DNA of 49,663 nucleotides from Chiloscyllium plagiosum (lineage: Eukaryota): assembly GCF_004010195.1 (NCBI RefSeq), contig NC_057718.1, positions 74,940,117 to 74,989,779 on the forward strand, written 5' to 3'. Each line of letters opens with the position of its first letter. The first letter of the stretch is position 1. The translations under genes and the position numbers were made by a program. The notes under the pieces are model-generated. The model was given only the letters and a program-made list of their open reading frames with translations. It had not been told where the DNA came from and ran no database searches. This document shows positions 5,746 to 48,900 of this stretch, piece by piece.

Positions 5746-5948
5746 AGGAGAAAGTGAGGTCTGCAGATGCTGGAGATCAGAGCTGGAAATGTGTTGCTGG
5801 AAAAGCGCAGCAGGTCAGGCAGCATCCAGGGAACAGGAGAATCGACGTTTCGGGCATAAGCCCTTCTTCTGCATTCCTGAAGAAGGGCTTATGCCCGAAA
5901 CGTCGATTCTCCTGTTCCTTGGATGCTGCCTGACCTGCTGCGCTTTTC
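5746..5948. mobile_element. Palindromic PLE family-A mini-element with hammerhead motif
   Basis: 71-bp inverted arms at 5799-5869 and 5879-5949. 15-bp TSD CTTTCCAAATATATG at 5731-5745 and 5949-5963. Confidence 0.88.
5873..5908 (+). ncRNA. Minimal type-I hammerhead ribozyme motif (family A)
   Basis: CTGAAGA-A-GGGC[TTAT]GCCC-GAA-ACGT-C: catalytic core, stem II, palindromic ACGT helix III. Predicted GUC cleavage after 5904. Confidence 0.75.
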
Positions 5949-6035
5949 CTTTCCAAATATATGTACATCCTGTCCCTCAGGATTCCCTCCAACAACTTGC
6001 CCACCACTACCGACGTCAGGCTCACTGGTCTATAG

Positions 6036-6146
6036 TGGAGAAAGTGAGGACTGCATTCCTGAAGAAGGGCTTATGTCCGAAACGTCGATTCTCCTGTTCC
6101 TTGGATGCTGCCTGACCTGCTGCGCTTTTCCAGCAACACATTTTCA
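6036..6146 (+). mobile_element. PLE family-A mini-element with hammerhead motif (core at 6059)
   Basis: Inverted terminal stub plus CTGAAGAAGGGCTTATGTCCGAAACGTC. TSD TCACTGGTCTAT at 6022-6033 and 6147-6158. Confidence 0.85.
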
Positions 6147-7084
6147 TCACTGGTCTATGGTGCTTGTCTTTACCGCCCTTCTTAAATGGTGGCACCACAT
6201 TAGCCAACCTTCAGTCTTCCGGCACCTCACCTGTGACTATCAATGATACAAATATCTCAGCAAGAGGCCCAGCAATCACTTCTCTCACTTCCCACAGAGT
6301 TCTAGGTCCATCTGATCAGGTCCTGGCGATTTTACCACCTTTATGCATTTCAAGAATCTTGCAGTTCCTTCTCTATAATCTGGGCATTTTGCGAGATGTC
6401 ACCATCTATTTCTCTACAGTCTATATCTTCCATATCCTTTTCTACAGTAAATACTGATGCAAAATACTTGTTTTGTATCTCTCTCATTTTCTCTGGCTCC
6501 ACACAAAGGCCACCTTGCTGATCTTTGAGGGGCCCTATTCTCTCCCTTTTGTCCTTAATATATTTGTAAGGATGCTGCCTGACCTGCTGTGCTTTTCCAG
6601 CACCACTCTGATCTAAACACTGAGACATCAGTTTAGCACCTATAGCAGCTGTTGGCTGCATGTATTTAACTAACTTACCATGTCAGAAACTAGATAGGGG
6701 GCAGCATCCGAGGAGCAAGAAAATCGATGTTTTGGGCAAAAGCCCTTCATCAGGAATAGAGGCAGGATGTCTCAGTGTGCCAAACAGCAAGATGCTGGCA
6801 CCTTGGACAGATTCCTCCTGAAAAGCATGGCAAGCAGCTTGTCTGGGTCTCTCTGAGAAAGAGCCTGCTAATACAGCTATGCTATAGTCTTTGGCTCTGT
6901 CAGAAGTGCTAATGTACTAGCTTGCATGATATGGCAGGCAAGACAAGGCATGGATGTTGAGAATATGCAGAAACTAAGTGAGCAGCCCTGAGCTGCAATC
7001 TGGCCCTTTCTGTAACTGGATGTCTATCCCTGTACACAGTGTCCTTGCAACAGGCTTTTAGTACTAGTCACTGGTGGACCTTGT

Positions 7085-7845
7085 GTGGTTCCTAGGTTTG
7101 TCTCCACATCCAACGCATCATCCATAAACAATTCTGCCAACTTCAATTAGACCCCAACACCAAGAACATCTTCCCCTCTCCATCCCTCTCTGCCAACCTT
7201 TCCCTTCGACAGACCTTGGTTTGTGCCATTCTTCCCCCTCCACACAGAGGTTCACCTGCCTCTCTTCCAACCTAGTTTACTGCATCTGGTGCTCCTGATG
7301 TGGCCTTCTCTACATCGCAGAGACCAAACTTAAACTTAGGGAATGGTTCACCGAGCATCGCAGCCGGACCTGCAGGGGCTGACCGGACCTCCCATCACCA
7401 CCCATTTTAATTCCCCTTCCCACTCCCCTTCCAACATGACCATCCTTGACCTCCTCTATTGCCTCAATGAACCTCACCACAGATTGGAGGAACAACACCA
7501 CATCTTCTGCCTGGGCAACCTCCAGCCCAGAGGACTCAACATTGAGTTCTTCAATTTCAAATAAACTCCCTTCCCATCCCCTGACTCCCTTCCCAGCTCC
7601 TCCCCCTCCCTTCCACTGCTCCCTGCCACCAACTGGATTCATTCTTCCTATTGACCCAACCAAGTCATACCCTCTACCTGTCTTCACCTATCCCCACTTC
7701 ACCACCCCGCCCCTGGCACCCCCTTTATCTGCAGCTCCCCGTACACCCATGCCCATCCTGAAGAAGGGTTACAACTGAAAAGTTGACTTATCCACCTCCT
7801 CATGCTGCCTGGCCTGCTGTGTTCTTCCAGCCTCCTGTCTGTCTA
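7085..7845 (+). mobile_element. PLE 3' end: decayed GIY-YIG endonuclease, pyrimidine-rich UTR, decayed hammerhead (7758)
   Basis: FTCLSSNLVYCIWCS*CGLLYIAETKLKLREWFTEH...HFNSPSHS...RLEEQHHIFCLGNLQPRGLNIEF. Confidence 0.85.
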
Positions 7846-8399
7846 CAGTCATTCCTAAGTGGCCTGCAAGAGAATCCAAGAGGTGCCTTGATTGTCCTGA
7901 GTAGATGATAAGTGCTGAATGTTAATGTCTATGGATGAAGGCATTGCACAACTGATAGGAATTGTGCCCTGAGATGTTGCTTGGGTGCTGAGCACATGGA
8001 ATGTTTGCACAACCAGACTCAAGCTGAAGCCACCAGATTCCCAACCTGACTCCATGTCAATAATTTTTGACGTCTGACTTGTTTGACATGTTTGGTAAAA
8101 TAGGAAATGGAATATTAATGAGGCAATGAGTGTTATTAATGAGGCACTTAACATGTAATAATCCCCCTTAATTGACAGATTGCCACTGCCTTGTGAGAAA
8201 ACCACTGCACCTCTCTGCAAATGCATAAGAGGTGGAACAAAATGCTCTTGATCTCAAGATAGACGTTCCTGGACTTGTCCAATTCTGCCCCAAATGTCAT
8301 ATAACCCAAACTGCTCCCATCCCTCTTAAATTCCACCCAAGGTGTTAGTGTTGGTATCTGCTTCTGTAAAGCCATTAAAAGAAATGTTTATTGGACACT

Positions 8400-11524: not shown

Positions 11525-11650
11525 AGTCAAAGAAAAACTCTAGATGCTGGAATCCAAAGTAGACAAGCAGGAGGCTGGAAGAACACAGCAAGCCAGGCAG
11601 CATCAGGAGGTGGAGAAGTCAACATTTTGAGTATAACTCTTCTTCAGGAA
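11525..11650 (-). mobile_element. PLE terminus fragment with decayed hammerhead
   Basis: Reverse complement CTGAAGAAGAGTTATACTCAAAATGTTGAC followed by the same terminal sequence seen at 7780-7845. Confidence 0.7.
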
Positions 11651-12289
11651 AGGCACTGGGACACCAACACTGGGAGAAAGGATGGCCTGAACTGCATACA
11701 CTAGCAAAACAGCCAACTCAGTAATTTTACCAGAGACAGCCTCTGAATTAACCAAACACATATCATCTGTCCAATTAAGAATGACAGGCAGAGCCTTGAT
11801 GCTCCTGAACTAAACAAAGGACTGGCAAGTTGGAAGGCTTAGGAGACTTGCTGATAGAGGTGGTCTCTGTCAAGACAGGTAACATTGAAAACTGGGCCAG
11901 GTACATTTAAAGAAAATCAATACAGTGGTCTTACAGGGGAGAGGAAAACTCTTCAAGAAGGTTTTTGGGCCATGGAAGCTGCCTTCTTGCTGGAGGTCCC
12001 CTTCTGTGGGCATTGTGCTACTGGCTCCAATGGCATCTCAGGATGCTGCTTTGAGGGGACACATCTACTTTAGTGATTATTCAAGATAAAGGGGTGGGGA
12101 GATGTGTCAACCCACTGTCGATAAAATGCTAATGCTTCTGTAATGATGCTAATTAGCTGTACACTTTCTTGAAATTCCATATCAGTGTCACCACTAGTAA
12201 AATGCACAACAACAGGATCGTGTTGAGGAATCATCCCAATATGACGCCATACAATTTTACTGCTCACCTCCTCTTCCAGAAATGTATGC

Positions 12290-14976
12290 AAATTTTCCAA
12301 GAAGTGTAAAATTAATAAGGCAGTGATAGTAAGGAATTTCAACTTCCCTAACATTAAATGGAGTAGTCGTAGTGTGAAAGATTAAAAGGGAGTGGAATTC
12401 TTAAATGCTTTCAGAAGAGTTTTCTGAATGAAGCTGGATGATGAAGCTGGGCAAATGTTTGAAGTATTAATGGGGGAGCATTTTGCAGACAACAATCATA
12501 ACTCCATTACATTCAAAACCTTTCTGTGAAAGAACAAGAAATCAATATCTAAACTGGGGGAAGGCCAATTTTAATAAGATCAGGTATGATTTAGCCAGAG
12601 AGTACTGGAAGCACATTCAAGAATGAAAAAATGGAGAGGACTTGGCCAAAATGTTCCAATAAAGACAAAGAGTGGGACAAACTAATTCTGTGACTCGCAG
12701 ACATGAAGCGACATATAGCATTGGATAAAGAGAAAGAAAGAAAGCTTATGGCAGCTATCAAGGATTCATAACAACAGAAGACATACAAAAATGAAGAATG
12801 TTAATGGGAAACTTAAAAAGGAAATTAAGATAACAAAAGGGGGCATAAAAGGATCACGGTAGGTGAAATAAAGAAAATATAAAGTTATTTTACAAGGACA
12901 TTAAAGATTAAGCAATTTTATTGTCACATGTACTCAAATGAGTACAGTGAAAAGTTTATAAATCGCCATTTATAGCACCATCTTAGGTACAAGGTACCTA
13001 GGGACAGCTTCTTCAGTTACAACAATAGTTACAGTGTAACAATCTCACCAACACACAGCACCAGCTTAGGTACAGAGTACCTAGGTACAATCCTTAGTTA
13101 CAGAATAGAGAAATGTAGAAAAAAAAAAGGTTACATTAGAGCTATACATAATATATCCATAGGTCAGAAAAACAAGAAGGAGAAAGTGAGGACTGCAGAT
13201 GCTGGAGATCAGAGCTGAAAATGTGTTGCTGGAAAAGCGCAGCAGGTCAGGTAGCATCCAAGGAGCAGGAGAATCGACATTTTGGGCATGAGCCCGAAGA
13301 AGGGCTCATGCCCAAAACGTAGATTCTCCTGCTCCTTGGATGCTGCCTGACCTGCTGCGCTTTTCCAGCAACACATTTTCACCTCAGAAAAACAAGAAGC
13401 AAAGTTAACAAGACAAACATCGCAGCCTCTCTCCAAGTGCTCTCTGCAGCAGACCAGCACAGTACGCCTCCACATGATCTGACTGCTCACAGCTATCACA
13501 CTCTGCCCCGACCGCTGCTGCCACAGTACGCACTGCACCGTTGCCATCATGCTCTGCATGGCATTATCCCCATTTCGCACTGGGCCACTGGTTGCTGGTG
13601 TCCCAGTTTGGGCCACCAACCCCGCTTTGGTGGCTGGGGCTGGGTGTCTGATGGGTAGCAAGTTAAAAGAACAGGCAGAACATAAATAAAAGCAAAGTAG
13701 AACAAAAAAATTAAGGAGGGAAAAGTTATAGTACAATAGAAAGTTAGCCAAAAATAGAAAAAGAGCAAATAAACATTTCTTCAGATAAATAAACAAGAAC
13801 AGAGTTAACAAAGTAAATGTTTGCCCTATAGAAAAATTAGGAAATTAGTAATGGAGGTTAAAGAAATGGCAGATGAATTGAACAGATATCTTATGTTGGT
13901 CTTTACTAGAGAGGAGACCCATAGCATCCTGGAATTAGCCATAAATCAGGGATTGAAAGGGAAGAAGGAGCTCAAGAAAATTCCGATTACCAGGGAAGTA
14001 TTACTGAATAAATTGTTAGAGCTATGAGTTGACAAGTCCCCAGGTCATGACAGATGTCATCCTTGTACCTTTAAAGAAGTAGCTCATGAGAAAGCTGATG
14101 AATTGTTTTTAATTTTCCAGAACTCATTAGTCTTGGAGAACGATTCCTTTAGATTGAAAAATAGCTCATGTAACTCTTTCATTCAAAAAAGGGAGGGAAG
14201 AAGAAAGCAAGAATCTACAGACTAGTTAGTTTAACGTCTGTAATAGGGAACATTTTCAAAGTTATTATTAAAGTTGTTATAAAAGCACTTTGATAAATTC
14301 AAGGTAATCATGCAGTGCCTGATTATCTTTTGTCAAAGATAAATCATGTTTAACTAATATATTGGAGTTCTTTTAATAAATAACTTGTGCTGTAGATAAA
14401 GGGGAACCAGTTAATGTATTGAATTCAGATTTCGAGAAATTATTTAATAAGATGCACATCAAAGATTATTGTGGAAAATAAAAGCTTGTGTTGTAGGTCA
14501 TAACATTTTGAATGACAGAAGATGGCTGGCTAACAGGAAGCAGACAGTAAGAATAGATTAGTCTTTTTCAGGTTGGCAGGATGTCATAAATAGGAACTGG
14601 TGCTGAGCCTGATTTTTTTGCAATTTATATAAATGATTTTGGTGCAGGATCAAAGCAACATTTCCTGGTGTCACAAAAATAGGTAGGAAAGTGAATTGTG
14701 AAGGTGATATAAGTGACCTACAAAGGGATACAGGTGTGAATGGGAAAGATCAGGCAAATGGAATGCAACGTTGGAAAGTGTGAAATTGTCCATTTTGGCA
14801 GAGCAAATTCTTTAAAATTATCTAAATGGTGAGAGGTTATAGAGCATGGAGATGCAGTCAGATCTGGACATGCTTGTGTATGAATTGCAGAGGTTACAGG
14901 CATAATATATAATCAGGAAACTAATATAATGTTATATTTCATTGCAAGGGGAATTGAATGCAAGAATAGGGAGGTT
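12290..14976 (+). mobile_element. Old CR1 LINE ORF2 remnants (APE endonuclease to RT), interrupted by insertions
   Basis: IVRNFNFPNI, EHFADNNHNSITF, KEMADELNRYL, NVTLSFKK, KSCLTNILEFF, WQMECNVGKCEIVHFG-like segments. Confidence 0.75.
13180..13383. mobile_element. Palindromic PLE family-A mini-element
   Basis: ~79-bp inverted arms (~13217-13295 and ~13302-13380). 16-bp TSD TCAGAAAAACAAGAAG at 13164-13179 and 13384-13399. Confidence 0.88.
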
Positions 14977-15750
14977 ATAGAACATAGAAAATTACAGCAC
15001 AGTACAGGCCCTTCAGCCCTTGATGTTGCACCAACCTGTGAAAACAACTGAAGCCTATCTATCCTACACTATTCCAGTATCATCCATATGTTTATCCAAT
15101 GACTATTTAAACGGCCTCAAAGTTGGCAAGTCTACTACTGTTGCAGACAGGGCATTCCACGCCCTTACTACTCCCTGAGTAAAGAACCTACCTCTGACAT
15201 CTGTCCTATCTCTATCAACCCTCAATTTAAAGCTATGTAACCTCATGCTAGCCTTCACCATCTGAGGAAAAAGGCTGTCACAGTCCACCCTATCTAAGCC
15301 TCTGATCATCTTGTATGTCTCTATTAAGTCACCTCTCAACCTTCTTCCCTCTAATGAAAACAGCCTCATGTCCCTCAGCCTTCCCTCATAAGACCTACTC
15401 TCCATTACAAGCAACATCCTGGTAAATCTCCAGTGACCTCTTTCCAAAGCTTCCACATCCTTCCTGTAATGCAGTGACCAGAATCGTACGCAGTACTCCA
15501 AGTGCAGCCGCACCAGAGTTTTGTACAGCTGCATGACCTCATGGCTCTAAAACTCAATCCCTCTACCAATAAAACCTAAACACCGAATGCCTTCTTAACC
15601 TTATCAACCTGGGTGGCAACTTTCAGGAATCTATGTACATAGATACTGAGATCTCTCTGTTCATCCACACTACCAAGAATTTTACCATTAGCCCAGTCTG
15701 CTGAATTCCTGTCATTCCTTCCAAAGTGAATCACCTCACACTTTTCTGCA
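14977..15750 (-). mobile_element. CR1 LINE 3' end inserted into an older CR1
   Basis: QLYKTLVRLHLEYCVRFWS...RRLRGDLIETYKMIRGLDRV; (TTCTATG)n tail at ~14977. Confidence 0.9.
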
Positions 15751-22592: not shown

Positions 22593-22759
22593 GGAATGTT
22601 TATTTTAAGACAAACGAAGCCGGTTAACGCTGCGTTTTTGATAACACTCGGTTTATATTTCTGATAAGCCAGTATTGGTAAGCAATGTTAAAACGAGAAA
22701 GACAGCTCCACAGAAGTTTTCGAAATTGCGAACAAAATCACAGACAATCTCTTCACCAA

Positions 22760-23772
22760 GTTAAAAATCACACAACACCAGGTTATAGTCCAACAGGTTT
22801 ATTTGGAAGCACTAGCTTTGAGAGCTCCGCACCTTCATCAAGATCACTTCAGCGGTCCGGGACATTCGGCCTCTGACCTTTGGCTGACCATCCTCCAGGG
22901 CGGACTTCTGGACAAGCAACACCGCAGAGTGGCCGAGCTGAGAGCAAAGCTCGGTATCCGTGGAATGGCCTCAACCGGAACCCTGGGTTCATGTCACACT
23001 ACAGGTGACCCCACTGTACCATACACACTCTCACACACACATCCACACTCCTACATAGACACACCCAGGCAGACCCTTTGTTATACCCAAGTTCTCTCTC
23101 ATATGCACACACATATACACCATCCCTCCCCCCCCCCCACCCCACTGCACTCACACCCATACACGCACTCTCTCATATGCACATATCCAGTCACACAGAG
23201 ACACACGCAAACACTTAACCAAGCTTACACACGCACACACACATTTACTGTACACACAGTCTATCAGGTGCACTCACACCCGCAGGCACACACTCACATG
23301 CACACTCGCTCTGCCATTCCGTCAGGCACACACATATAGGTTTATGGGGTGAATTTGTTTTTGCAGAATTACATTTTATGTTTCAAAAACTGCATGAAGC
23401 CATGTAAAACATCTGTAAAACTGTGCAGAGGGTTTGTCAGTTTGACTAAACATTGGGACACAGGCAGACTTCACACCTATTGTTAGAAAAGCTGAGCTGT
23501 CTTGAGAATGTAATTCGAAAGAAGTTCTAGGTTTTACATATCAAAGAACAAAAATCAACATATCCCATTCTAAAGGATGAAAGATTTAATGTAAAATTGT
23601 TTACTGTATCACAACTCCATCACACTGGACTCCTTTGGCTATAAATTCTGTGATCATGATCTTATTCACCCCAGCCACCTGATGAAGGAGCGGTACTCTG
23701 AAAGCTAGTGCTTCTAAATAAACCTGTTGGACTATAACCTGGTGTTTAACTTTGTCCAGCCCAGTCCAACAC
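22760..23772 (+). mobile_element. PLE family-B 3' end: inverted terminal copy (22760-22841), GIY-YIG C-terminus, (CA)-rich UTR, hammerhead (23679), terminus
   Basis: HFSGPGHSASDLWLTILQGGLLDKQHRRVAE...GLNR..GFMSHY across frameshifts. CACCTGATGAAGGAGCGGTACTCTGAAAGCTAGTG. Confidence 0.8.
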
Positions 23773-24642
23773 TTAAGTCATCTTTACCAAGTGGCAGATT
23801 TCATTTTCTCTCCAATTCTCTCCAATTAACCCAATCAAATTCAATATGTTTTGCATCCAGAGGCAAATCAATCCTTGAGATAAAATATACCTTGAAGGAT
23901 TACAGAACAAACCAGTGGAAAATATACATATTGAAAAGGTGACACATTATACATTTTATTATAAAGTTATTGCTCCAGCCCTATGGTAAAGTTTTAAAAA
24001 AACTGGCTTATGCGCAATATCCAGAAAATATAAATTCACTCTAAAGTTGTCAGTCAAACATTATCTTTGTACACACTATGTAACAAACTCAAAACTGCAA
24101 AGTTCTGCATGTACACAAGGAACAGGAGCTACTCAATAAATGCTGAGAAAGCAGACTTTAATTGGATTTTTTACTGATCACCATTCATGAACTAAAAGGA
24201 TCAGTTTACAGGTGACAAGTAAATAACAACTAACTGTAACAGTATAGACCAGACATTGAAATTCTTGTTATTATCTCATACGGCCAAACTCTTTCAGTAT
24301 AAATTACAATTAGATGGGGATAAATTGGATAGTTTCTGAAAACAGATGTAGGGATCAGGATGTGTCATTAGTCTGTATCCTTTCAATACAATGTGGCAGT
24401 ACAAACTTCATCCGGCCTGCTCATCTTTACTGTATGCAGCCATCAGAGACTATACCTTTCATTGGATGAATATATCAGCTGGGGTCCCAATATTGCTTTC
24501 TAGTACTCCTTAAATTTAGCCTTCACTGCTTAAAGCAGGTCTGCATGATTCAAATAGAAAGGACATTGTTGCTGCTGGATGTACTGACATCATTTACAGC
24601 TGTTGCTGTGCAAATAATCAATGGCTGTCCATGGGAGTACGT

Positions 24643-24773
24643 AGTTAAAAATCACACAACACCAGGTTATAGTCCAACAGGTTTAATTGGAAGCACACTA
24701 GCTTTCGGAGTGCCGCTCCTTCTTTGATTTTTAACTTTATATATCCCAGTCCAACACCGGCATTTCCAAATCA
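24643..24773. mobile_element. PLE family-B mini-element (truncated fold-back)
   Basis: AGTTAAAAATCACACAAC... and ...TGATTTTTAACTTT inverted ends. TSD TGTCCATGGGAG at 24626-24637 and 24774-24785. Confidence 0.82.
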
Positions 24774-30240: not shown

Positions 30241-30683
30241 TTGATAGAGGTGTACATGTAATCTTCTGCCATGAGGATAAATTAATCAAAGCATCATGTG
30301 AGGTAATCAGCAATGGAGAGTGTGATTGTGACTAATATAGGTGGAATATTTTTGTCAAGTGATTACAATGTTAGTACTTCTAAAGTAAAAATAATGTGAG
30401 GAACTGGAGGGAAGTCCATAAAGGAGCACGATTTATGGTAAGATGACTTTGCACAGATAAAAATCCCATGGGCGCATTAAAGTCAGCAGATATACAACAA
30501 AAGAAGGATTTGAATTTGAAAAATGGGGATATGCTAATGGAACAATTTTTAAAATGCAAGAATAATTAGTTTCTGGAATAATTAATTGTTGAAATAAAAG
30601 AATAAAACCAACATGAGAAAGATATTTGGAAAAAAGGTAAAGTTTTGGGATCTTCAGAAACTCAAGTAATGAACCCCACACAG

Positions 30684-30884
30684 TTAAAAATCACACAACA
30701 CCAGGTTGGACTATAGTCAACAGGTTTAATTGGAAGCACACTAGCCCTCCACTATTACCTGATGAAGGAGTGTCGCTCCGAAAGCTAGTGTGCTTCCAAT
30801 TAAACCTGTTGGACTATAGTCCAACCTGGTGTTGTGTGATTTTTAACTTTGTACACCCCAGTCCAACACCAGCATCTCCAAATC
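30684..30884. mobile_element. Palindromic PLE family-B mini-element
   Basis: Inverted arms of ~60 bp. 15-bp TSD ATGAACCCCACACAG at 30669-30683 and 30885-30899. Confidence 0.88.
30756..30790 (+). ncRNA. Minimal type-I hammerhead ribozyme motif (family B)
   Basis: TAC-CTGATGA-A-GGAG[TGTCG]CTCC-GAA-AGCT-A-GTG: 3-bp stem I, stem II, palindromic AGCT helix III. Predicted cleavage after 30787. Confidence 0.75.
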
Positions 30885-31599
30885 ATGAACCCCACACAGG
30901 TATCCATAAAGATAATCTGAAGTTTTCAAAAAATGCTGAAAACTACAAAGAGCAATTATGAAGAAAACAAAGCAGAAAATATCAAGACTGCAAAGCCCAG
31001 TAATGCTTTTCATTGGAGACTAACAGACTAAAGAAAGAAATTGCACTATTAAAAATTTTGGTGGAGAAGCATTGTGGAAGCAAAGAGTTTGCTTCAGCCA
31101 GAATTGTTAAATGCTGGAGCTTTATGTCAGAAATAGTATTTGGAAGAGAGAAAGAGAGCTTATACTTAAAATATTTAGGGCTCATGCAGAATTGCTACTT
31201 TCCTAATTGTAAAAGAGTAGATATTAATTACATGAGGTGGATAAAATTCTGTCAAACAGTCTTTTCTCTATTCTTCAACATACTTGTATAACTTATGTCA
31301 TATTTCTGGAGCTCAGGTGTTGCATGTCTAGAAATTCGAAATGCAATGTCTACTTTTGAAATTGAGTTCTAAGACAAGACATCCCAATTTCAAGTTGCAA
31401 GTCTTGATCTTTTGTCATAAAACTATTTGAAACAACATTGCAGGTTGAACCAATATATGGCATAAATGATAGAAAGACAGTTCCTTTTAGAATGGGGTTT
31501 TGTTTGACAAACTTAATGGACTTTTTTGATGAACATATTGACCTGAGAAAGAAACAGTCAGTGGAGAGAGAAATAAAGTTACTGTTTTGAGGCAAGTAT

Positions 31600-32280: not shown

Positions 32281-32744
32281 CCAAGGTTCATGGTGTACCA
32301 CTTTTATTGCATGCAACACCTTCCTCATTTTATCTCACCCACTCCAACTCCCAGACTACTAATCCAGCTGCCATCCGCACTGCTTATTCACTAACTTGGG
32401 GCATTTCATTCCCTTTCCATCTTATCATCCACCTGTACCAACTCTGACAGCTTTGCCAAACACTTTCATTTCACTCAGTCCCTCCCCTTGACTTATTGCA
32501 GGAGAAAATGGCCCACAAAATGGGGAAGACACCCAATGACTTGAGGTGGGGTCCCTGATACTTGGCTCCTCAACTACACTGCGTTCCCTCCCTTGCCCCC
32601 ACCCATGAGGACAGGATCCTAGCCCTGGTCAATGAGGACTAAGCCCACTCAGGCATACATTCCAAACTACCTATGTTCTGGCAACCAAGTAAGAAGGATT
32701 GTCAATGCTGTTCTCTTCTTCCATTATCACCACCGTGTCAAGGT

Positions 32745-32860
32745 GCTGGCGTTGGACTGGGGTGCACAAAGACTTCACCTGATGAAGGAGCAACACTCTG
32801 AAAGCTTTTGATTTCGAACAAACCTGTTGGACTATATCCTGGTGTCATGTGACTTCTGAC
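32745..32860 (+). mobile_element. PLE family-B-related mini-element with hammerhead motif (32779)
   Basis: Inverted stub GTGCTGGCGTTGGACTGGGGTG plus CACCTGATGAAGGAGCAACACTCTGAAAGCTT...AAACCTGTTGGACTAT. Confidence 0.7.
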
Positions 32861-33936
32861 ATTATTATTACTGTGAACTGTGGTCTCTTAATAAGCCTGA
32901 ACTTCTACTCATTCTTCTCAACACATTCTCTTTTTTTTTTGTCTCCAGCAGGAACAAGTGGCATTTGCACGGTCTGAGTAGCCAAGAAAACACCAAGTTT
33001 CCTTCTCCTTATCTGAGCAAAAAGTCACAGTTCCTTCAGAGGAAGCCCCAGCATGCCTACCTCCTGCAATCTTTACTAGCTCAGATAGATACCTCAGTGT
33101 GAGCACTAACATGATTACAGACCTGCTGGTGAGCATGAGACTGCCACATCTCTGTAAACAAACAAGGAAGGAGTGTCCCAGGTCACTGGCACACGGAGAA
33201 TGGCTGGAGACCCAGAACCTACCTCAATCCAGACAGGTGACGTTCCCATCGTGTTGGCAATTAAGAACTTCATAAAAATGCACAAGAAGACACAGGAGCA
33301 GGTGGCAGATTTGTTGGGTGGGTTGTGCAAACTGACACAAAGGTTGCAGGACCATATCTTCACTACTTGGACCTCACTGCCTCTGGCATGCAAGCACTGA
33401 CTGCCTCTACAGACAGATTTGGAGCTGCTATGTAGAGCCAGATCGGGCAGTCTCAGTGTCTGTTGGATATATGCAGATTCACACTTCATTGCTCTAGCCA
33501 TTGCAATACGGGACAAGGGATCTTGTCCTCACTCCAGGTGCTTTTTCATCAAAAGGAGACAGGGTGATGTCTGTAGCCTGTTCAGGAGAATCAAATACTA
33601 TCATTCCCTCTACAGAGGTTTCCTCTTGCAGCATTCAAGTGTTGGCTGGATCTTCCACCTCACCTTGCCTGCCACCCTCACTTCTGTGGAAGTTCAAGCC
33701 AAGGAGGATGCACCTGTCTCTCATGTCTTTGCTGTTTAGCCATGAGATGATCTAACTAAATCTTCAAGGTCAATGGGCTCCACTGTAGGACAGGCTCCCT
33801 TTACCCAGCTGTGGGCCCTTGGGACTGCATCAAGATCTGTTGGCAGTGAAAGGAAGAAGAAGACATGAGGGCATGTCTGAGGACCCATAAGTGGTACAAG
33901 GGCAACTTCATTGTGAATATCAATTTAGAGGCGTCA

Positions 33937-34278
33937 GTGTACAAAGTTAAAAATCACACAACACCAGGTTATAGTGCAACTGGTTTATTTGGAAGCACTA
34001 GCTTTCAGAGGGCTGCTCCTTCATCAGGTGGTTGTGGAGTAGGACCATAAGACACAGAACTTATAGCAAAAGATTACAGTGTCATGCAAGTAAAATGATA
34101 TATTTAACAAACCTCCGTTGTATATCATTTCAGTTGCATGACATTGTAATCTTTTGCTATAGGTTCTCTGTCTCACGGTCCTACTCCACAACCACCTGCA
34201 GAAGGAGCAGCGCTTTGAAAGCGAATGCTTCCAAGTAAACCTGTTGGACTATCACCTGGTGTTGTGTGATTTTTAACT
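33937..34278. mobile_element. ~340-bp palindromic PLE family-B element with hammerhead motifs on both strands
   Basis: Arms ~33945-34102 and ~34121-34278 are reverse complements. Minus-strand core intact (33996-34030); plus-strand copy decayed (~34193-34237). Confidence 0.88.
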
Positions 34279-36922
34279 CTTCTCACATAGGTTCACATCT
34301 CATCAGTTCATCAGACATTCTGAGTGAATATCTGTCAATCTGTGACTATGAGATTGAAAGCGCAGAGCCTAGTCATGCTTAGTGTCATATAATTTTTTTT
34401 GGTCTCATATGTGAACTGAACAGCTCCTGAACAAGGTGCAGACTATTGAATCTTGGAAGGTAGTTGTTACTTTGGCAACTAAATGAATCTTTGCTTGCGT
34501 ATCACAGCCATGAGTGGGATTGATTCCTAATGCTGCACAAGGTGATCCAGAATACTTGCATTCCATGGATTTGCATTCCATGCCCTAGGTTAATGCCTAA
34601 TGTCATACTAGGTTTCTTTCATCTGTATAGTATGGGAGCCCATGAAATGCTGTTGTCCTTTGAAGGATCTCACATTGCTTGAAAATGAAGACTTTTCCCT
34701 TACAGAACAAAACAGTTGTCTGGCCAGTCTGGGTATGGTGGCAGCATTTTCAGCTCCATTGCGCAGTAGTTATTTGCATTATGGTGGATGGAAACCACAA
34801 TCACACTTCATATAGTGAGTCTCAAGTTCAACCTCTCAGCCTTGGTGAACCCCCAAATGTGCAAACTCCCTTCTTCGTAGTCAATCGCATCAGCTTTGAA
34901 CTTCTCCACATTCCTACTCAACCAATCTATTTAACTCACCTCCCCACTTTACTCCCCTCTGATCCAGGCATATCATGTCAACATGCCAGATAACTTTCTT
35001 CAGACTCGAAACATTAACTCTGCTTTTCTCTCTACAGGTACTACCAGACTTGCTGAGTTTCTCCAGCATTTTCTGTTTTTGTTTCAGATTTCCAGCATCT
35101 GCAGTTCCTTCTTTTTATGATAGATATAATTTTGGACTGTACTCCCAAATAAAGCCAGACTGCCGACTGTCAATAACTTCCTTATTCTGGCATTACCCTT
35201 TCCTTTCCATTATTTATTGGCTTGCCCCTTATATATTAAGCTGCCTTCCTTCACAGTTATTATACTTTTCCATCCCATCAAGCTGCTTTTAATCCCCACA
35301 ATTGAGATCCTGGCTTCTCTCACATAGCAGTAGCTCCTGATTATTTCCTACTTGATTTTTATCTCACCAAAGACTGATCATGGCTCACCTTGACTTGGAT
35401 GGACAGACTTGTTTGATAATTGACCGGACTCCTGACTGACCTCAGGGAGATGCACAGAGTGAATTCCCATGACTCCCTGGACTGGCTGCACAAGGCCATT
35501 CATTGCCATCTTCTGGACTTTAAAGGTACAAATCCCCTGACCCTGACCACCCCATTGACTGTGCCCAAGCCCTGGACTGATATCAGACACTACTCTTGAA
35601 TTATTGTGCCAGGACACCCTGACTGAAGGATGTCTACATTGACTTGACTGAATACTGCTTATTAGACAAAGATAAGTAGAAAAGGAAATGTGAAGAGGTG
35701 GAATCGTCCTTGTCCAGTGTGTTGTGAGCAACAGCAAGAAAGATGAGGAAATCCAGCAAGAATGAGAAAATCAGAATCTCAATGTTAAGGATTTTTTTTG
35801 TACAATTTTCCTTTTCAGAAATAAATGGTGACTTCATAAGCTTGCTATTTAATAGAACAGCAGCAAACTTGTTTTTACCAGCACCTTATGAATAAAAACT
35901 CTTGATAAAGGGAGTCAGTTATTGCAGTAAGGGGTGATCATATCTTGGAAGGGTCATTAAATGAGACTTTGTCGGTAGAACTTAGGAATAAAAAGGGACA
36001 ATCACATGGTGAGGAGTGCATTATGGCCTTCAAACAGTCAGTAGGAAATTGAGGAACAGATGTGGAGTCAATTCACTAAGGAATGTAGAAATAATAATAT
36101 GGTAATTATATTAGGGATAATTAATTGAGATAATTGGAACAGGAAGGCTTTAGAGATGACAGGATTCTTGAAGTGCAGATGCATTAATAAGCAATTTTGT
36201 ACTCTAGGATTTCTTAGAGAAAATGAAGGAAGGCATGTAAACTTTTGAACATTATGAAAAGGTTCAGCAACTTGGAAATATGTAGGCTAGGTGAACTAGC
36301 CATGGCAAATGTGGGGTTATGGGGATAAGGTGGGTGACTGGGTTTGGGTGGGATGTTCTTTGGAGGGTCGATATGGATTCAATAGGCCAATTGGCCTCTT
36401 TCTGCAATTCTGGGATTCTAGAGTCTCCATTGTTCTGCTCCCTTTGCACCTGTTATTTGTTTCTCTTTTTTTTTTATCTAATCCTGAATATCCCTTCACA
36501 CCTAAGGTTTTCTGGGCTTGTTACTCCTACTTTTCACCCTAAAGGAAACATATTGGGCCAATATCCCCAGTACCCTTTTGAATGATAGAATTTACCTGCA
36601 AGTAAAATTTCCAAGTCCATTTTGGCCAGGTGCTGCCTATTTTAATAAAATCTGCCTTACCCAATTCAAAATCCTTTTTGCAGGCCATATCATTTTCCTT
36701 TTTTCCATAAAGCAAAAATGTATGGTGTTGCAGTCATTATCACTAAAATGCTTCCCCTCTGTCTCCTTGCATACCCACCAGCATCATTTCTCAGAATGAC
36801 GTCTGGCTTTGCACCATCTCTTGTAGAACCATCTACTGCATGTGATATTTTCAAAGTTCTCCTGCATGCATTTCAGGAAATCTGTCCTGCAAGTTGGACA
36901 CAATAAGGCAATCTAAACCATA

Positions 36923-37312
36923 GCTGAAAAAGTGTTGCTGGAAAAGCGCAGCAGGTCAGGCAGCATCCAGGGAACAGGAGAATCGACGTTTCGGGCATAA
37001 GCCCTTCTTCAGGAATGAGGAAAGTTTGTCCAGCAGGCTAAGATAAAAGGTAGGGAGGAGGGACTTGGGGGAGGGGCGTTGGAAATGTGATAGGTGGAAA
37101 GAGGTCAAGGTGAGGGTGATAGGTCAGACGGGGGTGGGGGCGGAGAGGTCGGGAAGAAGATTGCAGGTTAGGAAGGCAGTGCTGAGTTCGATGGATTTGA
37201 CTGAGACAAGGTGGGGGAAGGGGAAATGAGGAAACTGGTGAAATCCGAGTTCATCCCTTGTGGTTGGACGGTTCCTAGGTGGAAGATAAGGCGCTCTTCC
37301 TCCAACCGTCGT
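36923..37312 (-). mobile_element. Young PLE family-A 3' end (GIY-YIG C-terminus, UTR, intact hammerhead at ~36981-37016), truncated by the gap
   Basis: RRLEEERLIFHLGTVQPQGMNSDF. Reverse complement ATTCCTGAAGAAGGGCTTATGCCCGAAACGTCGATT. Confidence 0.88.
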
Positions 37313-38283: not shown

Positions 38284-38519
38284 NGTGTGTGTGTGTGTAT
38301 ACGTGTGTGTGTGAAACAGAAAGAGAGTGGGTGTGTGTGTATGTGTTGTGTGGGGAGGGGATAATTTATTCAACACTCAGAGACCTTTATCTGATCATTG
38401 ACGCACATGGAAGACAGTACCGTTCAGCACTGATGCACTCTGAATTAGCGTGACTCACTACTTGAACCCTGAACGCTGATTTACAATATTGTGGGCAAAA
38501 TGCCTCTTTAGAAAGTTCT

Positions 38520-39449: not shown

Positions 39450-39838
39450 AGGAGAAAGTGAGGTCTGCAGATGCTGGAGATCAGAGCTGAAAATTTCATT
39501 TCCCCTCCTCCCACCTTGTCTCAGTCAAATCCATCGAACTCAGCACCGCCTTCCTAACCTGCAATCTTCTTCCCCACCTCTCCCCCCGCACCCCAGTCTC
39601 GCCTATCACCCTCACCTTGACCTCTTTCCACCTATCACATTTCCGACGCCCCTCCCCCAAGTCCCTCCTCCCTACCTTTTATCTTAGCCTGCTGGACAAT
39701 CTTTCCTCATTCCTGAAGAAGGGCTTATGCCCAAAACGTCGATTCTCCTGTTCCCTGGATGCTGCCTGACCTGCTGCGCTTTTCCAGCAACACATTTTCA
39801 GCTTTGATCTCCAGCATCTGCAGACCTCACTTTCTCCT
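39450..39838 (+). mobile_element. PLE family-A 3' end with inverted 5' stub; hammerhead at 39713 with a G12>A substitution
   Basis: AGGAGAAAGTGAGGTCTGCAGATG... is inverted to ...CAGACCTCACTTTCTCCT. CTGAAGAAGGGCTTATGCCCAAAACGTC. Confidence 0.88.
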
Positions 39839-39854
39839 CAATTTAAACCATAAC

Positions 39855-42233: not shown

Positions 42234-42439
42234 GCTGAAAATGTGTTGCTGGAAAAGCGCAGCAGGTCAGGCAGCATCCAAGGAGCAGGAGAATCGATGT
42301 TTCGGGCATGAGTGTGAAGAAGGGCTCATGCCCGAAACGTCGATTGTCCTGCTCCTTGGATGCTGCCTGACCTGCTGCGCTTTTCCAGCAACACATTTTC
42401 AGCTCTGATCTCCAGCATTTGCAGTCCTCACTTTCTCCT
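42234..42439. mobile_element. Palindromic PLE family-A mini-element
   Basis: ~79-bp inverted arms. 13-bp TSD AGTGGGAAAATAC at 42221-42233 and 42440-42452. Confidence 0.88.
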
Positions 42440-43050: not shown

Positions 43051-43074
43051 ATCCATCTTGGACAGCAGTGCCCA

Positions 43075-43358: not shown

Positions 43359-43979
43359 ATTTCAGGGCATGTTTCATAGAAGGGTCCACATGCATCCATT
43401 CCTTAGCCGTGTGTACAGGGGTAATGTGAGGACCCTTGATAAGGTTGACAGGGAGGAAAAAAGCAGAACCAAATGCAAGGTTAGCAGGAAAGAGGGGCTG
43501 GGGTGCGTGGCTGGATGTGGTGCACTCACATAGATTGAAAAACTGAGCCCATAGATCAGTCTGTGAAGGATTACCCTGTCATCATCTTCCCTCATCCAAA
43601 TCACAAATGCACAATGGAAATGAAAAATAGTTCCCATCGTATGCAGACTTTGAGAAGTACATTTTGTATCTTGAGAGGGGTAGGTTCTACCTGTGAATGA
43701 AGCGAGGATCTTCACAGGACAATTGCATTAATTAGATACCAATCAGTACAGATTGAAGACATCTGTATCACAGAATTCTGGAGGTCAAATTTGTGCAATG
43801 ACCAACCATGTCAACTAAAACCCTGGCACAAGCAATCTTGACCATATAATTGAACATTACAAGTAATGGCTATAAAGTAGAAGAAATGTCAGGTGAGTTG
43901 TAAAGTTTCAGTCAAAATTCCACAATTCATAAACACATTCCAAGGTCTTGTTATAGCCTGCACAAGGTCCAAGAGCTGT

Positions 43980-45015
43980 TCAGCTGGCTCCTATTTCAAG
44001 GATCACAATTTCCCCTCCCACATGGTCAACAATGCCCTCCAGCACATCTCCTCCACTTCCCACACCTCCATCCTTGGACCCCACCCCTCCAACCACGACA
44101 AGGGTAGTACCTCCTGGTCCTCATCTTCCACCACACTAACCTCCAGATACAATGCATTACTCTTCACCATTTCCACCACCTACAATCAGACCCCATCACC
44201 AGAGATATATTTCCCTCCCCACCCCATCAACATTCTGCAGAGACCATTCTCTCCACGACTCCCTCGTTAGGTCCACACCACCCACCAACCCACCCTCCAC
44301 TCCTGGCCCTTCTCTTTGCCACCACAAGAGGTGTAAAACTTGTGCCCATACTATCCCCCTCACCTCCATCCAAGGCCCCAAAGGATCCCTCCATATCCAT
44401 CAGAGATTTTCCTTCACATCCAAACACCTCATCTACTGTGTCTGTTGCTCTGAATGTGATCCCCTCTAAACTGGGGAGACTGGACACCAACCTACGGAAC
44501 GTTTCAGGGAACATCGCTGGGACACATGCACCAAACAATCCCACCGCTCTGTGGTCGACCATTTCAATTCCCCCTCTCAGTCCGCCAAGGACACATAAGT
44601 CCTGGGCCTCCTCCACCGCCAAATCCTAGCCTCCCAATGCCTGGAGGAAGAACGCCTCATCTTTTGCCTTGGGACCCTCCAAACACTGTAGTCAGAGCAC
44701 AAACAAAAAACATTTATACAGCATCATCCAAATGGTGGATCATGGACGCCTCCAACAAGGCAGACAATTGGGTGCCTCATGATGAAACGTTTATATTGTA
44801 GCCTGATTCAAAGTCAATTTAGCCTCATTCCCACCCTCTTATTTATCTCTCGGCCCCCTTCCCGCACCCCCACCATCGCCACATGCCTGATGAAGGGTTT
44901 ATGCACATAACATCAGTTTTTCTGCTGCTTAGATGCTGCCAGACCTGCTGTTCTTTTCCAGCACCACACCATTCGACTCTGATTCTTCAGCACCTGCAGT
45001 CCTCACTCTCTCCTA
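43980..45015 (+). mobile_element. Neptune-type PLE 3' portion: RT thumb, Cys-rich linker, GIY-YIG, decayed hammerhead (44887), terminus
   Basis: FKDHNFPSHMVNNAL; RDHSLHDSLVRS; CHHKRCKTC; HLIYCVCCSEC..L*TGET...RFREH...HFNS...LEEERLIFCLG. Confidence 0.85.
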
Positions 45016-45564
45016 CAAAATATCCACACCATTATTTTATATGTAATAGTGTCTTTCTTTGGTAAGTGGGTGTTGGGTTGGGGGTGGGGTGGGGAAAATA
45101 ATCACGTTCTTCCTACAACACTTACAATCTCTTATGATAAGTTTGCTCCATGATTTGTGTAGCACACATCAGAATCAGGCTACAATATAAATGTTTCATC
45201 AGGAGGCACCCAATTGTCTGCCTTGTTGGAGGCGTCCATGATCCACCATTTGGAAGATGCTGTATAAATGTTTTTTGTTTGTGCTCTGACTGCAGAGTAA
45301 TCACTTTACTGAAGAGCTACTCTGTTTCTGACGTTGTCCACATAGGCTCTTTGGAAACATCTGCAATGGATCTAGGCGCAGAACTTATTGCTGTCTCTGT
45401 GTCTGTTCCACTAAAATTGATGGAAAACATATGCTTTTGAAAGCCCAAAAGTCTCAACAACCTTTGAAAGATGCACAGAACTTTCCAGCAAAAGGTGCTG
45501 TCATGATTCAGAAAAACTGCAGGAAGTTCACAGTTGCTCATCTTCCATAAAATGCTGCAGATAT

Positions 45565-45606
45565 GAGAGAGAGAGAGAGAGCAAGCGAGAGAGAGAGAGA
45601 GAGAGA
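45565..45606 (+). repeat. (GA)n microsatellite
   Basis: Direct reading. Confidence 0.9.
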
Positions 45607-45929
45607 CAGTGATACCAGGTTCTGTACATAACATTTAAGAAGTACTTAGATGTGCACTTGTTAGGGGCCAACTGTTGGAAAATGGGACAAGAATATTTGG
45701 GTGTTTATTCTTGACTGGTGTAGACATGATGGGCCAAATGACTTTTTCTCTGCCGTTGATCTCCATGACTCTACAACAACACTATTGGCTGCAGCAAGCC
45801 AGGCAGAACTTCTAAGGCAACCACTTTCAATGAAACCAAACTGGGAGAAGTCATCATTTACTGATTGTAGATATGTTGATCTTGCTAAGGGCAATATGCC
45901 CTCTTTAATCTCAACTTCAAATGCAGCTT

Positions 45930-48900
45930 CCCCCGTTTGCCAGCTTTTGGCCCATATCTGTCTAAACCCTTCCTTCTCATGTACCCATCCAGATGCCTTT
46001 CAAAAGATGTCATTAAACCTGTGTCCAGCACTTCCGCTGGCAGCTCATTACACACACACACACACACACACCATGAAAACACCATAAACAAGCCCACCCC
46101 CAGGGAAACGACCTTGACTATTTACCGTTTCCGTGCCTTTTATGATTTTGTAAACCTCTGTAAGGTCACCCCTCGGCCTCCAACGCTTCAGGAAAAAAAG
46201 CTCCAGCCTATTCTGCTTCTCCCTATAGCTCAAATCCTCCAACCCTGGCAACATTCTTGTAAGTCTTTTCTGAGCCCTTTCACATTCAGCAATATCATTC
46301 CTACAACAGGGAGACCAGAATTGAATGCAGTTTTTAAAAAGTGGCCTCATCAATATCCTACATAGCCACAACATGACATTCAACGACTATACTCAGTGCA
46401 CTGATCACAGAAGGCAAGCATGTCAAACATTTTCTTCACCACCCTGTCAACTTGTAACTCCACTTTCAAAGAACAATGCACCGCACCCCTAGGTCTCTTT
46501 TTTCAGCAACACTCCCCAGGGCCCTACGATTGACTGTGTGAATTTTGCCCTGATTTGCATTACCAAAGTGCAGCACCTCACATTTATCTAAATTCAACTT
46601 TATCTGCCACTCCCCAACCCAACCGCCCATCTGATCAAGGTCACTTTGTACTCTGAGATAATGATCTTTGCTGACCACTACACCATCAATTTTGCTGTCA
46701 CCTTCAAATTTACTGACCAGACCTCGTATATTCACACCCAAACCATTTATATAAATTATGAAAAGCAGTGGACCCAGCATCGATCCTTGCAGGACACCAT
46801 TGGTCGCAGAGCTCCAATCCAAAAACAAATCCTCCACCACCACCCTCTGTCTCCTAGCTTCAAGACAAATTTGTATCTGATTGACTAGCTCCACCTGGAT
46901 TTCGTGTGATCTAACCTCATTAACAGGTTACCATGCAGAATCGTGTTGAACGCCTTGCTAAAGTTCATATAGACAATATCTACCAGTCTACCTACATCAA
47001 TCATTTTTGTCACCTCTTCAAAAATCTCAATCACATTAGGGAGACATAATTTCCCACACAATGTCATGTTGACTATCCCTAATGGATATGGGCGGCATGG
47101 TGGCACAGTGGTTAGAAGGGCTAATGCCCGAAACGTCGATTCTTCTGTTCCCTAGATGCTGCCTGACCTGCTGCGCTTCTCCAGCAACACATTTCCATCT
47201 CTGATCTCCAGCATCTGCAACAGTCCAAAGATGTGCAGGTCAGGTGAATTGGCCATGCTAAATTGCCCGTAGTGTTAGGTAAGGGGTAAATGTATGGGTG
47301 GGTTGCAGGTCGGTGTGGACTTGTTGGGCCAAAGGGCCTGTTTCCACACTGTAATGTAATGAAATCAGTTCTTGCCTTTCCAAATGCATGTAAATCCTGT
47401 CCCTCAGGATTCCCTCTAACAACTTACTCCCCACTGACATAAGGCTCATCTGTCTATAGTTCCCTGGTTTTTCCTTACCATCTTTCTTAACTAATGGCAC
47501 CACACTGGGCAACCTCCAATCTTCCAGCAACCCACCAGTGACTATTGATGTGGATCCAACAGCCCCTTCCCTAGTTTTCCACAAAATTCTGGGATAGACC
47601 TGATTTACTGGGGATTTACCGATCTTTATGTTTTTTTAAACATCCAGCCTCCTCTTCTGTAATATGGAGACTTTTCAAGGTATCATTATTTATTTCCACA
47701 AATTATCTATCTTCCATGTCCTTCTCAACAGTACCTACTGATGTGAAATGTCCTTTTAGTATATCACCCAACTCCTGCGGTTCCACAATAGATGGCCTTA
47801 TTGATTTTTAAGGGGCCCTATTCGGTCTTAGTTACTGTTTTGCCCTTAACGTATTTGTGTAATATTCTCAACCTTATTTGCTAAAGCTATCTCATGTCCT
47901 CTTTTTGCCCTCTTGATTTCCTGCTTAAATATACTCCTACTGCCCTTGTACACTTCTAGGGATTTTTTTTCTCAATTCATTCAGGGGATGATGGCATCGC
48001 TGGCTAGGATAGTGCTTATTGCCCCATCCCTAATTGCTCAGAGGGCAATGAAGAGTCAACCACATTGCTGCGGATCTGTAAGCAAGACCAGGTAAGGACC
48101 AGTTTCCTTCCCTAAAGAGTTCCCAGATGGGTTTTTCCAACAAGTGGAAAGAGATTGATGGTCATCATTACATTCTTAATTCCAGATTTTTAAAAAAATG
48201 AAATCAAATTCCACCAGCTGCCATGGTGAGGTTTTGTACCTGGGTCTCTAGTTTAATTGTCCAGTGATAATACTACAAGACCACTTGATTTCAGCTGTCT
48301 ATATCTTCTTATTCTTGACTCAAGCCTCAATTTCTCTGGCCATCCAGCATTCCACACAACTACTACCCTTGCCTTTCACATTAAAAGGAATGTACTGTAT
48401 TTAAACTCTCATTATCTCATTTTTGAAGGCCTCCCACTTTCCAACTATCCCTTTACCTGTGCATCAATGTTTGAAAGTTTCTGCCTAACATCGTCAAAAT
48501 TGGCCTTATTCCAGCTTAGAACTTTAATTTTTAGATCAGGTCTATCCTTTTCCATCACTATTTTAAAACTAGTAGAATTATGATCACTGGCCCCAAAGTG
48601 CTCTCCCTCTGCAACCTCAATCACTTGCCCTGCCTTATTTCCCAAGAGAAAGTCAAGTTTTGCACCTTCTGTACATCCACATATCGAATCAGAAAATATT
48701 CTTGTACATACTTCTCCTCTATCTCAGCCCTTAACACTGTGACAGTCCCAGTCTATGTTTAGAAAGTTAAAATTCCTACCACAATAATCTTCTTATCCTT
48801 ACATATATCTGAGATCTCTTTTCATATTTGCTTCTCAATTTCCTGATGATGACTTATTGGTAATAAAATACCAATAAGATGATCATTCATTTCTTATTTC

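Follow-up and report, generated by a model that had tools for sequence, protein, structure and literature searches.

Minimal hammerhead sequences of an abundant Penelope-like retrotransposon in Chiloscyllium plagiosum and the likely templates of their copies

A stretch of 49,663 nucleotides from Chiloscyllium plagiosum (contig NC_057718.1, positions 74,940,117 to 74,989,779), referred to below as the window and numbered from its first letter, carries many copies of a short hammerhead motif. By their sequence these are genuine minimal type I hammerhead ribozymes (min-HHRs) of Penelope-like elements (PLEs), with self-cleavage predicted, and they sit in the end repeat (pseudo-long terminal repeat, pLTR) of an abundant PLE whose protein linker points to the Neptune type, a linker that Nematis shares. 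In the reading proposed here, to which a probability of about three in four is given, these pLTR hammerheads are predicted to cut only as a dimer, and the stubs found in the window likely derive from uncut RNA and are likely inert. The motif itself has already been described, and what the window contributes is shark-like families within that known class.

The motif and its carrier element

Positions within the motif are counted from C3 of the core as 0, with the predicted 3′ cleavage product beginning at +28, and each site is named by the coordinate of its C3. The catalytic core (C3 U4 G5 A6 N7 G8 A9 ... G12 A13 A14, U16.1 H17) is intact at 5877, 6059 and 37012 and in 86 of the 136 genome copies that span the motif, and G10.1 and C11.1 are the majority bases at their columns. 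Helix III and loop 3 are absent and a palindrome stands in their place (ACGU in families A and E, AGCU in family B), and helix I comprises 2–4 bp whose sequence differs among families A, B, D and E. Because helix III is only a palindrome, the cut, predicted to fall after GUC, would need a dimer. An earlier note on this DNA had likewise seen a minimal PLE hammerhead that needs a dimer, which fits the published min-HHRs, including those with ACGU, and pattern scans recovered every hammerhead site that it listed.

A min-HHR descriptor, requiring the core and helix II but neither helix I nor the palindrome and allowing 0–6 nt between A15.1 and U16.1, gave 8 matches in the window (four of family A and four of family B), whereas 100 Markov controls averaged 0.17 and never exceeded 2. 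In 800 kb of the genome it gave 59 matches, compared with 1–4 in each of five controls. Wider counts come from 160 evenly spaced 10-kb tiles on contigs C1-C8 (1,536,574 non-N bases), which are not a random sample. Among the 109 descriptor matches in this 1.6 Mb, an extra base lies between A9 and G10.1 in 106 and exactly 2 nt separate A15.1 from U16.1 in 104; the published min-HHR has this extra base as well. The canonical type I hammerhead as modelled in Rfam has a 6-bp helix I and a loop-loop tertiary contact, unlike the helix I of 2–4 bp here, and an Rfam scan of the window returned no hammerhead family among 14 matches at E≤10, its top matches being microRNA (miRNA) models that lie on inverted repeats and score under their gathering thresholds.

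The variants that the note had placed at 7758(+) and 11648(-) are real but constitute a separate family C, not derivatives of the GGGC/GCCC stem. The usual helix II of family C in the genome sample is GGGT/ACCC, against which the GAGT/ACTC stem of the 11.6-kb copy is a double transition in a single copy. The note had missed family B (CUGAUGA-A-GGAGC-N3-GCUCC-GAAA-GC-U-A; seven ribozyme-bearing copies between 22.7 and 34.3 kb), two family-D remnants, and the architecture of inverted copies flanked by target-site duplications (TSDs), including the inverted arms 5747-5869(-), 13179-13295(-) and 42234-42312(-). Family E (L135, L145, L168, L182, L216, L233) differs in having U rather than A as the extra base and a helix II of 6–8 bp, and its copies mostly extend upstream instead of ending at the ribozyme as those of A and B do.

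Broken pieces of a PLE open reading frame (ORF) lie in the window at 3-1480(-), ~7100-7550(+), 37200-37312(-) and 43900-44700(+). Downstream of each of the last three, on its own strand, come a pyrimidine-rich 3′ untranslated region (3′ UTR), a hammerhead and a tail. A genome search with the thumb region of the reverse transcriptase (RT) gave 36,826 candidates at first pass; in 20 genome loci chosen by this protein region, a hammerhead or tail lies downstream on the same strand in 17, and an inverted copy lies upstream in nine. Natural ORFs of the family match RVT_1 in Pfam (E 5.8e-9), and two of four proteins match GIY-YIG weakly, just below the cut-off (E 2e-4 and 3.6e-4), while one of the four gave no match. 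A CX4CxxC linker is present (CNRRRCNTC in P0001), and linkers of the CX2-5CxxC type are assigned to Neptune/Nematis (PMC8557442, PMC3846280).

At the other end of the element, the tail is continuous into the ORF start in 5 of 30 loci chosen by the N-terminal region (L245, L252, L254, L256, L257), with a hammerhead upstream of the ORF in L245, L252, L256 and L257. This continuity, together with the downstream hammerheads, places a hammerhead at each end of the ORF. The element thus reads 3′ UTR, hammerhead, tail (~90 or 125 nt) and ORF start, with hammerhead and tail repeated after the RT-endonuclease ORF, and the first AUG of the ORF lies ~160 nt after C3, past the tail. In young copies the tail ends near +85-96 and +124-126; further clusters of 3′ ends at +75-81 and +110 were set aside as points where older subfamilies diverge. 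In L245:690-705 and equivalents the long tail ends immediately ahead of an AG, itself preceded by CTCAC and a pyrimidine tract; this AG, ~35 nt before the first AUG, resembles a 3′ splice site.

Starting points of the copies and the template they suggest

The tiles hold 251 arms of family A, 78 of D, 72 of B, 24 of E and 14 of C. Per Mb there are 163 arms of family A, and descriptor matches number 68; extrapolation from these non-random tiles to the genome of 3.56 Gb gives ~5x10^5 family-A arms and ~2x10^5 descriptor matches. After removal of 10 arms at tile edges or N and two that were unplaced, 239 family-A arms were scored for their 5′ ends. Ninety begin at -12..-1, with a peak at -4/-3, and 47 at 0..+9, so that the 5′ edge of the ribozyme is the start of 137 of them; 44 begin at -41 or beyond, none at -40..-21, four at -20..-13, 19 at +10..+26, four at +28 and 29 deeper in the tail, two falling outside these bins. 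Family B behaves similarly (28 of 71 at -12..-1, peak at -3/-2). Long and short forms occur within each of the five commonest subfamilies, which points to a recurring process rather than to one short master copy.

An independent set of 40 loci, chosen solely by the first 105-200 bases after the tail, repeats the pattern in copies that extend into the ORF. Two were limited by N; of the remaining 38, 19 begin at -4..+10 (one of which carries an internal deletion and was positioned by eye), 14 in the tail, one each at -8, at -16 and at +26 (the last an inverted junction), and two run into the 3′ UTR, while none of the 38 starts at the cut site +28. The copies that end at this wall were primed downstream of the tail and went across the scissile bond, coming to a stop at the base with which helix I begins. 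Since most of the stubs too begin at the first letters of the motif and not at the cut site, they were likely copied from uncut RNA.

The wall falls on pyrimidine-CA in families A and B, and in family A on TCATTC, which fits the initiator consensus; the pattern of ends suggests that the likely transcription start is the base that opens helix I, the A of TCATTC. Two other causes of the wall were considered and rejected. A splice acceptor at helix I finds no AG before -4, and the upstream flanks are unique or inverted; stalling of RT at a folded ribozyme would be expected to stop near +30 and not at -4. No pile-up of RNA reads at starts or ends was seen in ~2% of one run (2,069 matching reads, the species label of the run being unconfirmed), a result of low power because passenger transcripts dominate; a second run gave no matching reads, and none of the sequence records listed as carrying the motif was an RNA record.

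A mechanism can be proposed on this basis. The transcript would start at helix I, with a hammerhead at the 5′ end of the RNA, and RT would prime inside the tail, by analogy with PAc, a Poseidon element of Anolis. Priming in the 5′ tail would yield stubs of 80-135 nt that run off the end of the RNA, priming on both target strands would yield head-to-head pairs, and priming in the 3′ tail would yield ORF copies truncated at the 5′ end. In the natural dimer, the 5′ ribozyme of a full-length transcript would join with the 3′ ribozyme of that transcript, probably aided by the protein of the element; were both to cut, the resulting unit RNA could circularise and occasionally rebuild a tandem pLTR, as a minority route.

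An inverted partner piece lies upstream of 96 of the 251 family-A arms, and each of the head-to-head units 5747-5949, 13179-13388 and 42234-42438 is bounded by a single 13–16 bp duplication and hence represents one insertion. A TSD of at least 7 bp surrounds 22 of 73 short non-inverted family-A copies and none in controls; in family B the count is 1 of 19, against two in controls.

The wall might instead be made on DNA, the GIY-YIG endonuclease or integration cutting or joining at ATT before the core while the transcript starts elsewhere. PAc cleaves 5′-ATT-3′ near its ORF-pLTR junction (PMC11167929), and family-A ends peak at -4/-3, on ATT. This explanation is nevertheless unlikely: family B, which has CAC in place of ATT, still peaks at -3/-2, other ATT or T-rich sites in the tail show no comparable wall, and the same wall appears in the ORF-extending copies.

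A quite improbable view is that cleavage defines the template as its main role, with some insertions tracing back to the 3′ cleavage product or to a ligated circle, a model proposed for metazoan PLEs (PMC4209133). Four of the 239 arms start at +28, where the neighbouring positions average 0.97 per base (nominal P 0.017), and two of the 38 ORF-extending copies, as well as L245, continue through to 3′ UTR sequence, the layout expected of a circle or tandem; the double cleavage with ligation of that model could account for these few. Only one of the four +28 arms (L166) is a clean junction, however, one of the others being an internal duplication and two inverted junctions, and no ORF-extending copy starts there. 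A circle, moreover, has no 5′ end and cannot yield the wall at -4, so that the circle route is at most minor. The +28 excess may reflect a small cleaved-template route.

Several points, the +28 excess among them, weigh against dimer-dependent cleavage and uncut templates that start at helix I. Monomers are not predicted to fold into the hammerhead, helix I is weak in most of family A (U-U at the third pair in 41/65), and the activity of min-HHRs is low even as dimers (PMC4209133). The start site is placed from DNA ends only, and the base before ATTCC, where a cap could leave an extra G, is G in 12 cases and A in six, several of them at inverted junctions. The PAc endonuclease prefers ATT (PMC11167929), a triplet present at the family-A wall as well, and in D. 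virilis transcription starts not at the ribozyme but 46 bp upstream of a 75-bp intron whose end is at helix I (PMC4209133, PMC2377424).

Constraint between families and decay of copies

Between families the core is constant and the helices change in compensation. Helix I is AUUC/GAUU in family A (GAAU in one subfamily), CAC/GUG in B, GUU/AAC in D and UCA/UGA or CCA/UGG in E; helix II is GGGC/GCCC in A, GGAGC/GCUCC in B, GGGUC/GACCU, and a stem of 6–8 bp in E; and helix III alternates between ACGU and AGCU. The family-majority pairs are Watson-Crick in 13 of 16 cases, which 192 of 331,776 column permutations reach, although this figure is no strict probability, the families being related and D and E resting on 5 and 7 matches. 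The columns that mark the subfamilies of family A are N7, loop 2, position 1.3 and the tail, none of them catalytic.

The earlier note had expected the core to be conserved beyond the flanking pLTR sequence, and this holds between families and fails among individual copies, where 127 copies chosen blind to the core columns show 72 mismatches in 1270 core positions (the ten columns other than G12) and 174 in 4401 tail positions. An apparently better conservation of the core among copies was rejected as a bias of alignment edges, since the blind-chosen set erases or reverses the difference. Young copies give 10/470 in the core and 42/1821 in the tail (p=1.0), and in older family-A copies C3 and G5 mismatch in 15% and 20%, truncation adding to the count. 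Four families that covary in helices I–III imply that the source elements were selected. Selection has therefore acted on the source elements and not on the inserted copies, which decay neutrally.

Loss of G12 was one subject of the earlier note, and G12A is confirmed at 6753, 39713 and 13294. The further suggestion that deamination of the CpG at G12 may be the default route of inactivation is not supported as stated: G12 changes no more than neighbouring CpGs, and other damage is commoner. Every hammerhead with the G10.1-C11.1 pair has a CpG at C11.1-G12, to which family A adds a further two within nine bases. In the 127 blind-chosen copies G12 became A in 14, and the neighbouring CpG guanines changed in 22 and 21. 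Among the 136 spanning copies, G12 is changed in 20 (16 without another core change), another core position in 34, the palindrome is broken in 57 and the closing pair of helix I in 33, while 40 are intact throughout; most copies, being solitary or inverted, lacked a dimer partner from the outset. In the older subfamily, G12>A (10/75, 13%) exceeds G>A outside CpG (38/809, p=0.005) and does not exceed change at other CpG guanines (61/216). The deficit relative to the latter (p=0.012) is not claimed, as it shrank in an unbiased set of 80 older copies, where G12>A occurs 11 times and the other CpG guanines changed 18, 21 and 16 times. Deamination is real and strongest on helix III, and it is one inactivation route among several. 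At the family-A CpG C17-G1.1, older copies show C>T less often than G>A (8 vs 23 of 76; 10 vs 21 of 80), an asymmetry between strands despite the locally palindromic TCGA, which may reflect variants inherited from the source.

The motif could have been kept as a protein-binding or promoter element, or it could cleave merely to limit expression by removing a capped 32-nt leader upstream of the AUG, with no part in producing templates in either case. That nearly all insertions come from uncut RNA suits such a view, as do the unaffected insertion of PAc hammerhead mutants in vitro (PMC11167929) and the success of Naiad PLEs without hammerheads (PMC8557442). It appears doubtful all the same, because the catalytic positions and the pairings of helices I–III are kept in four families, which fits catalysis better than a DNA motif, and because a pure brake would be costly to a selfish element unless it brought a payoff. 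Tentatively, the hammerhead might be the first structure of the capped transcript, with +1 at the opening base of helix I and the dimer made by the two ribozymes of one RNA, and cleavage a switch, the uncut capped RNA serving nearly all insertions and the decapped unit RNA rarely circularising and so restoring the tandem promoter. The stubs, several hundred thousand in the genome, would in that case form a countable fossil record of that partition.

Copies in the window and comparison with known systems

Only three family-A copies in the window, 5877(+), 6059(+) and 37012(-), are intact in core, palindrome and helix I closing pair, the rest being shortened or mutated. The first belongs to the head-to-head insertion 5747..5949, a single insertion of two arms with a 15-bp TSD on its flanks: the minus arm (5747-5869) comprises the tail and a ribozyme that starts 2 nt into the core, and the plus arm (5872-5949) an intact ribozyme with C3 at 5877, predicted scissile C17 at 5904, and a partial tail. 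The second is the short copy 6036..6147(+), whose core is intact with one G-U wobble in helix II, and which has a short inverted tail piece in front and a flanking direct repeat of ~12 bp. The third lies in the 3′ end of a young element, 36919..37312(-), which holds the last endonuclease codons, the pyrimidine-rich 3′ UTR, an intact hammerhead (C3 37012, C17 36985, the core spanning 36985-37012) and a short tail, and is ended by an N gap at 37313-38284.

The other family-A copies are damaged in various ways. The older copy 6700..6765(-), with C3 at 6753, has G12A and a broken palindrome (ACAU). Both arms of the head-to-head insertion 13179..13388, flanked by a duplication of ~16 bp, carry G12A, the plus arm (C3 13294) also U4C. 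The older inverted insertion 28838..29009 has its tail on the minus strand (28838-28914) and its ribozyme on the plus strand (C3 28915), with palindrome (AUGU) and helix I broken. The young copy 39451..39838(+) consists of an inverted tail piece (39451-39494), 3′ UTR, hammerhead and long tail, and G12A is the sole damage to its hammerhead at 39713. In the head-to-head insertion 42234..42438, with a 13-bp TSD, the plus arm (42314) begins at U4, and the short copy 47114..47219(+) begins ~4 nt into the core (C3 position 47110).

Copies attached to coding remnants are the decayed 5′-truncated PLE 43900..45011(+), with RT-thumb, linker with CX4CxxC, endonuclease remnant, 3′ UTR, a heavily decayed hammerhead (44887) and a long tail, and 7100..7882(+), in which a decayed PLE endonuclease remnant leads through the 3′ UTR to a decayed family-C hammerhead (C3 7758). 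The second family-C copy, 11559..11660(-) (C3 ~11648), combines the GAGT/ACTC stem with G12A. The broken ORF 3..1480(-) of the same family, which retains the N-terminal part, RT with YIDD and the thumb, served as the anchor that links protein to hammerhead.

Family B is represented by a decayed copy with the AGCU palindrome (22755..22840, -), a copy with helix I CAC/GUG (23618..23803, +; C3 23679), three insertions with inverted parts (24642..24774, ribozyme arm on the minus strand, beginning 5 nt into the core; 30678..30886, ribozyme on the plus strand, C3 30759; 32736..32863, C3 32779(+), with an inverted tail piece) and the head-to-head pair 33945..34278 (C3 34027(-) and ~34196(+)), whose 158-nt arms are 89% complementary. 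The decayed family-D remnants lie at 10020-10101 and 35004-35099, both on the plus strand.

Tandem head-to-tail arrays are absent from the window, where copies are solitary or head-to-head, and the nearest pair on one strand, 5877 and 6059, consists of separate TSD-flanked insertions 182 nt apart. That three copies are intact, that two of them share a strand at such a distance and that the family is present in RNA reads could suggest active or co-opted ribozymes on host transcripts. Such activity is highly improbable: the prediction for read-through RNA is a long duplex in which the inverted arm 5747-5869 zips up one ribozyme (-230.6 kcal/mol), the core is conserved no better than the tail among copies, and 92% of matching reads continue into unlike sequence, with both strands read, as expected of passengers. 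The window copies are short or inverted insertions and likely inert, and counts of 'ribozymes' in such genomes represent mostly inert stubs. The construct 5860-5930 that the earlier note had proposed for cleavage assays is spoiled by the inverted structure: it takes in a portion of that arm, for which pairing with the CUGAAGA core is predicted.

If transcribed, the head-to-head units 5747-5949, 13179-13388, 42234-42438 and 33945-34278 would form near-perfect hairpins of 80–160 bp, which obtain weak miRNA-model scores; they could yield double-stranded RNA or endogenous small interfering RNA in large amounts. The only clear host gene in the window is an intronless open frame of 392 codons at 20488-21666(+), a G protein-coupled receptor of the rhodopsin family (7tm_1, E 2.4e-74), probably a serotonin receptor of the 5-HT1 type; the nearest hammerhead copies lie 1-2 kb downstream. 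A 1,230-bp stretch at ~1140-2370(-), which includes non-element flank, recurs inverted at 98.7% identity in L242 (+, ~3 kb left of the window), facing an N gap, and represents either an assembly duplication or a recent inverted duplication. Other abundant repeats, tRNA-type short interspersed elements and 3′ ends of CR1-like long interspersed elements (LINEs), occupy 3635-5130, 16856-17154, 4241-4735, 15048-15546, 46100-46960 and 49003-49663, with an RVT_1 match (E 4.7e-6) at 46469-46927 in the CR1-like LINE region.

A literature search that covered few subscription journals returned nothing that deals with PLE hammerheads of sharks or with transcripts starting at helix I. The closest known motifs are the min-HHRs of metazoan PLEs (Cervera and De la Pena 2014, PMC4209133), which share the core CUGANGA-H, G10.1-C11.1, GAAA and the palindromic 15.2-16.2, as well as the short helix I, the pLTR location and the prevalence of solitary truncated copies with some opposite-strand pairs. 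Fugu, lamprey and Xenopus rows of that alignment show the same core with ACGU, and the part of the alignment available has no row for a cartilaginous fish. Helix II measures 4 bp in family A, whereas 7–8 bp is typical in S. mansoni and 3–8 bp the range across the alignment, and the extrapolated ~2x10^5 matches compare with ~4,000 in coelacanth and ~9,000 in Xenopus, counted there with a descriptor of its own.

EN+ PLEs (with an endonuclease) of the Neptune clade (Craig et al. 2021, PMC8557442; Arkhipova et al. 2013, PMC3846280) share with the element described here the order of RT and C-terminal GIY-YIG, the CX2-5CxxC linker, heavy 5′ truncation, inverted 5′ copies, an optional tail of 30–40 bp and TSDs; the passages of these accounts that were covered do not mention 5′ ends massed sharply at helix I. 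Non-LTR retrozymes (Li et al. 2026, bioRxiv 10.64898/2026.07.22.740005; LTR, long terminal repeat) likewise carry type I hammerhead repeats derived from PLE pLTRs, but in tandem arrays, unlike the solitary or head-to-head copies of the window. The same work describes tandem retrozymes in one chondrichthyan genome and cleavage of one of nine Xenopus dimers.

PAc of Anolis (Frangieh et al. 2024, PMC11167929) shares the hammerhead at the pLTR-ORF junction, uncut RNA as the main template and two 3′ end points ~35-40 nt apart in the tail. In PAc the first AUG lies in stem II, whereas here it lies ~160 nt after C3, beyond the tail, and the Cys-rich linker of Neptune/Nematis distinguishes the present element from it. 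Reverse transcription of PAc starts internally at two sites, with both strands extended; PAc inserts normally with a dead ribozyme, and its ribozyme needs protein to cleave (PMC11167929). The huge copy number in C. plagiosum acts as an in vivo constraint, namely that templates were nearly always uncut and started at the edge of the ribozyme, which agrees with the in vitro result for PAc and identifies both a start site open to test and the partner with which a natural dimer would form.

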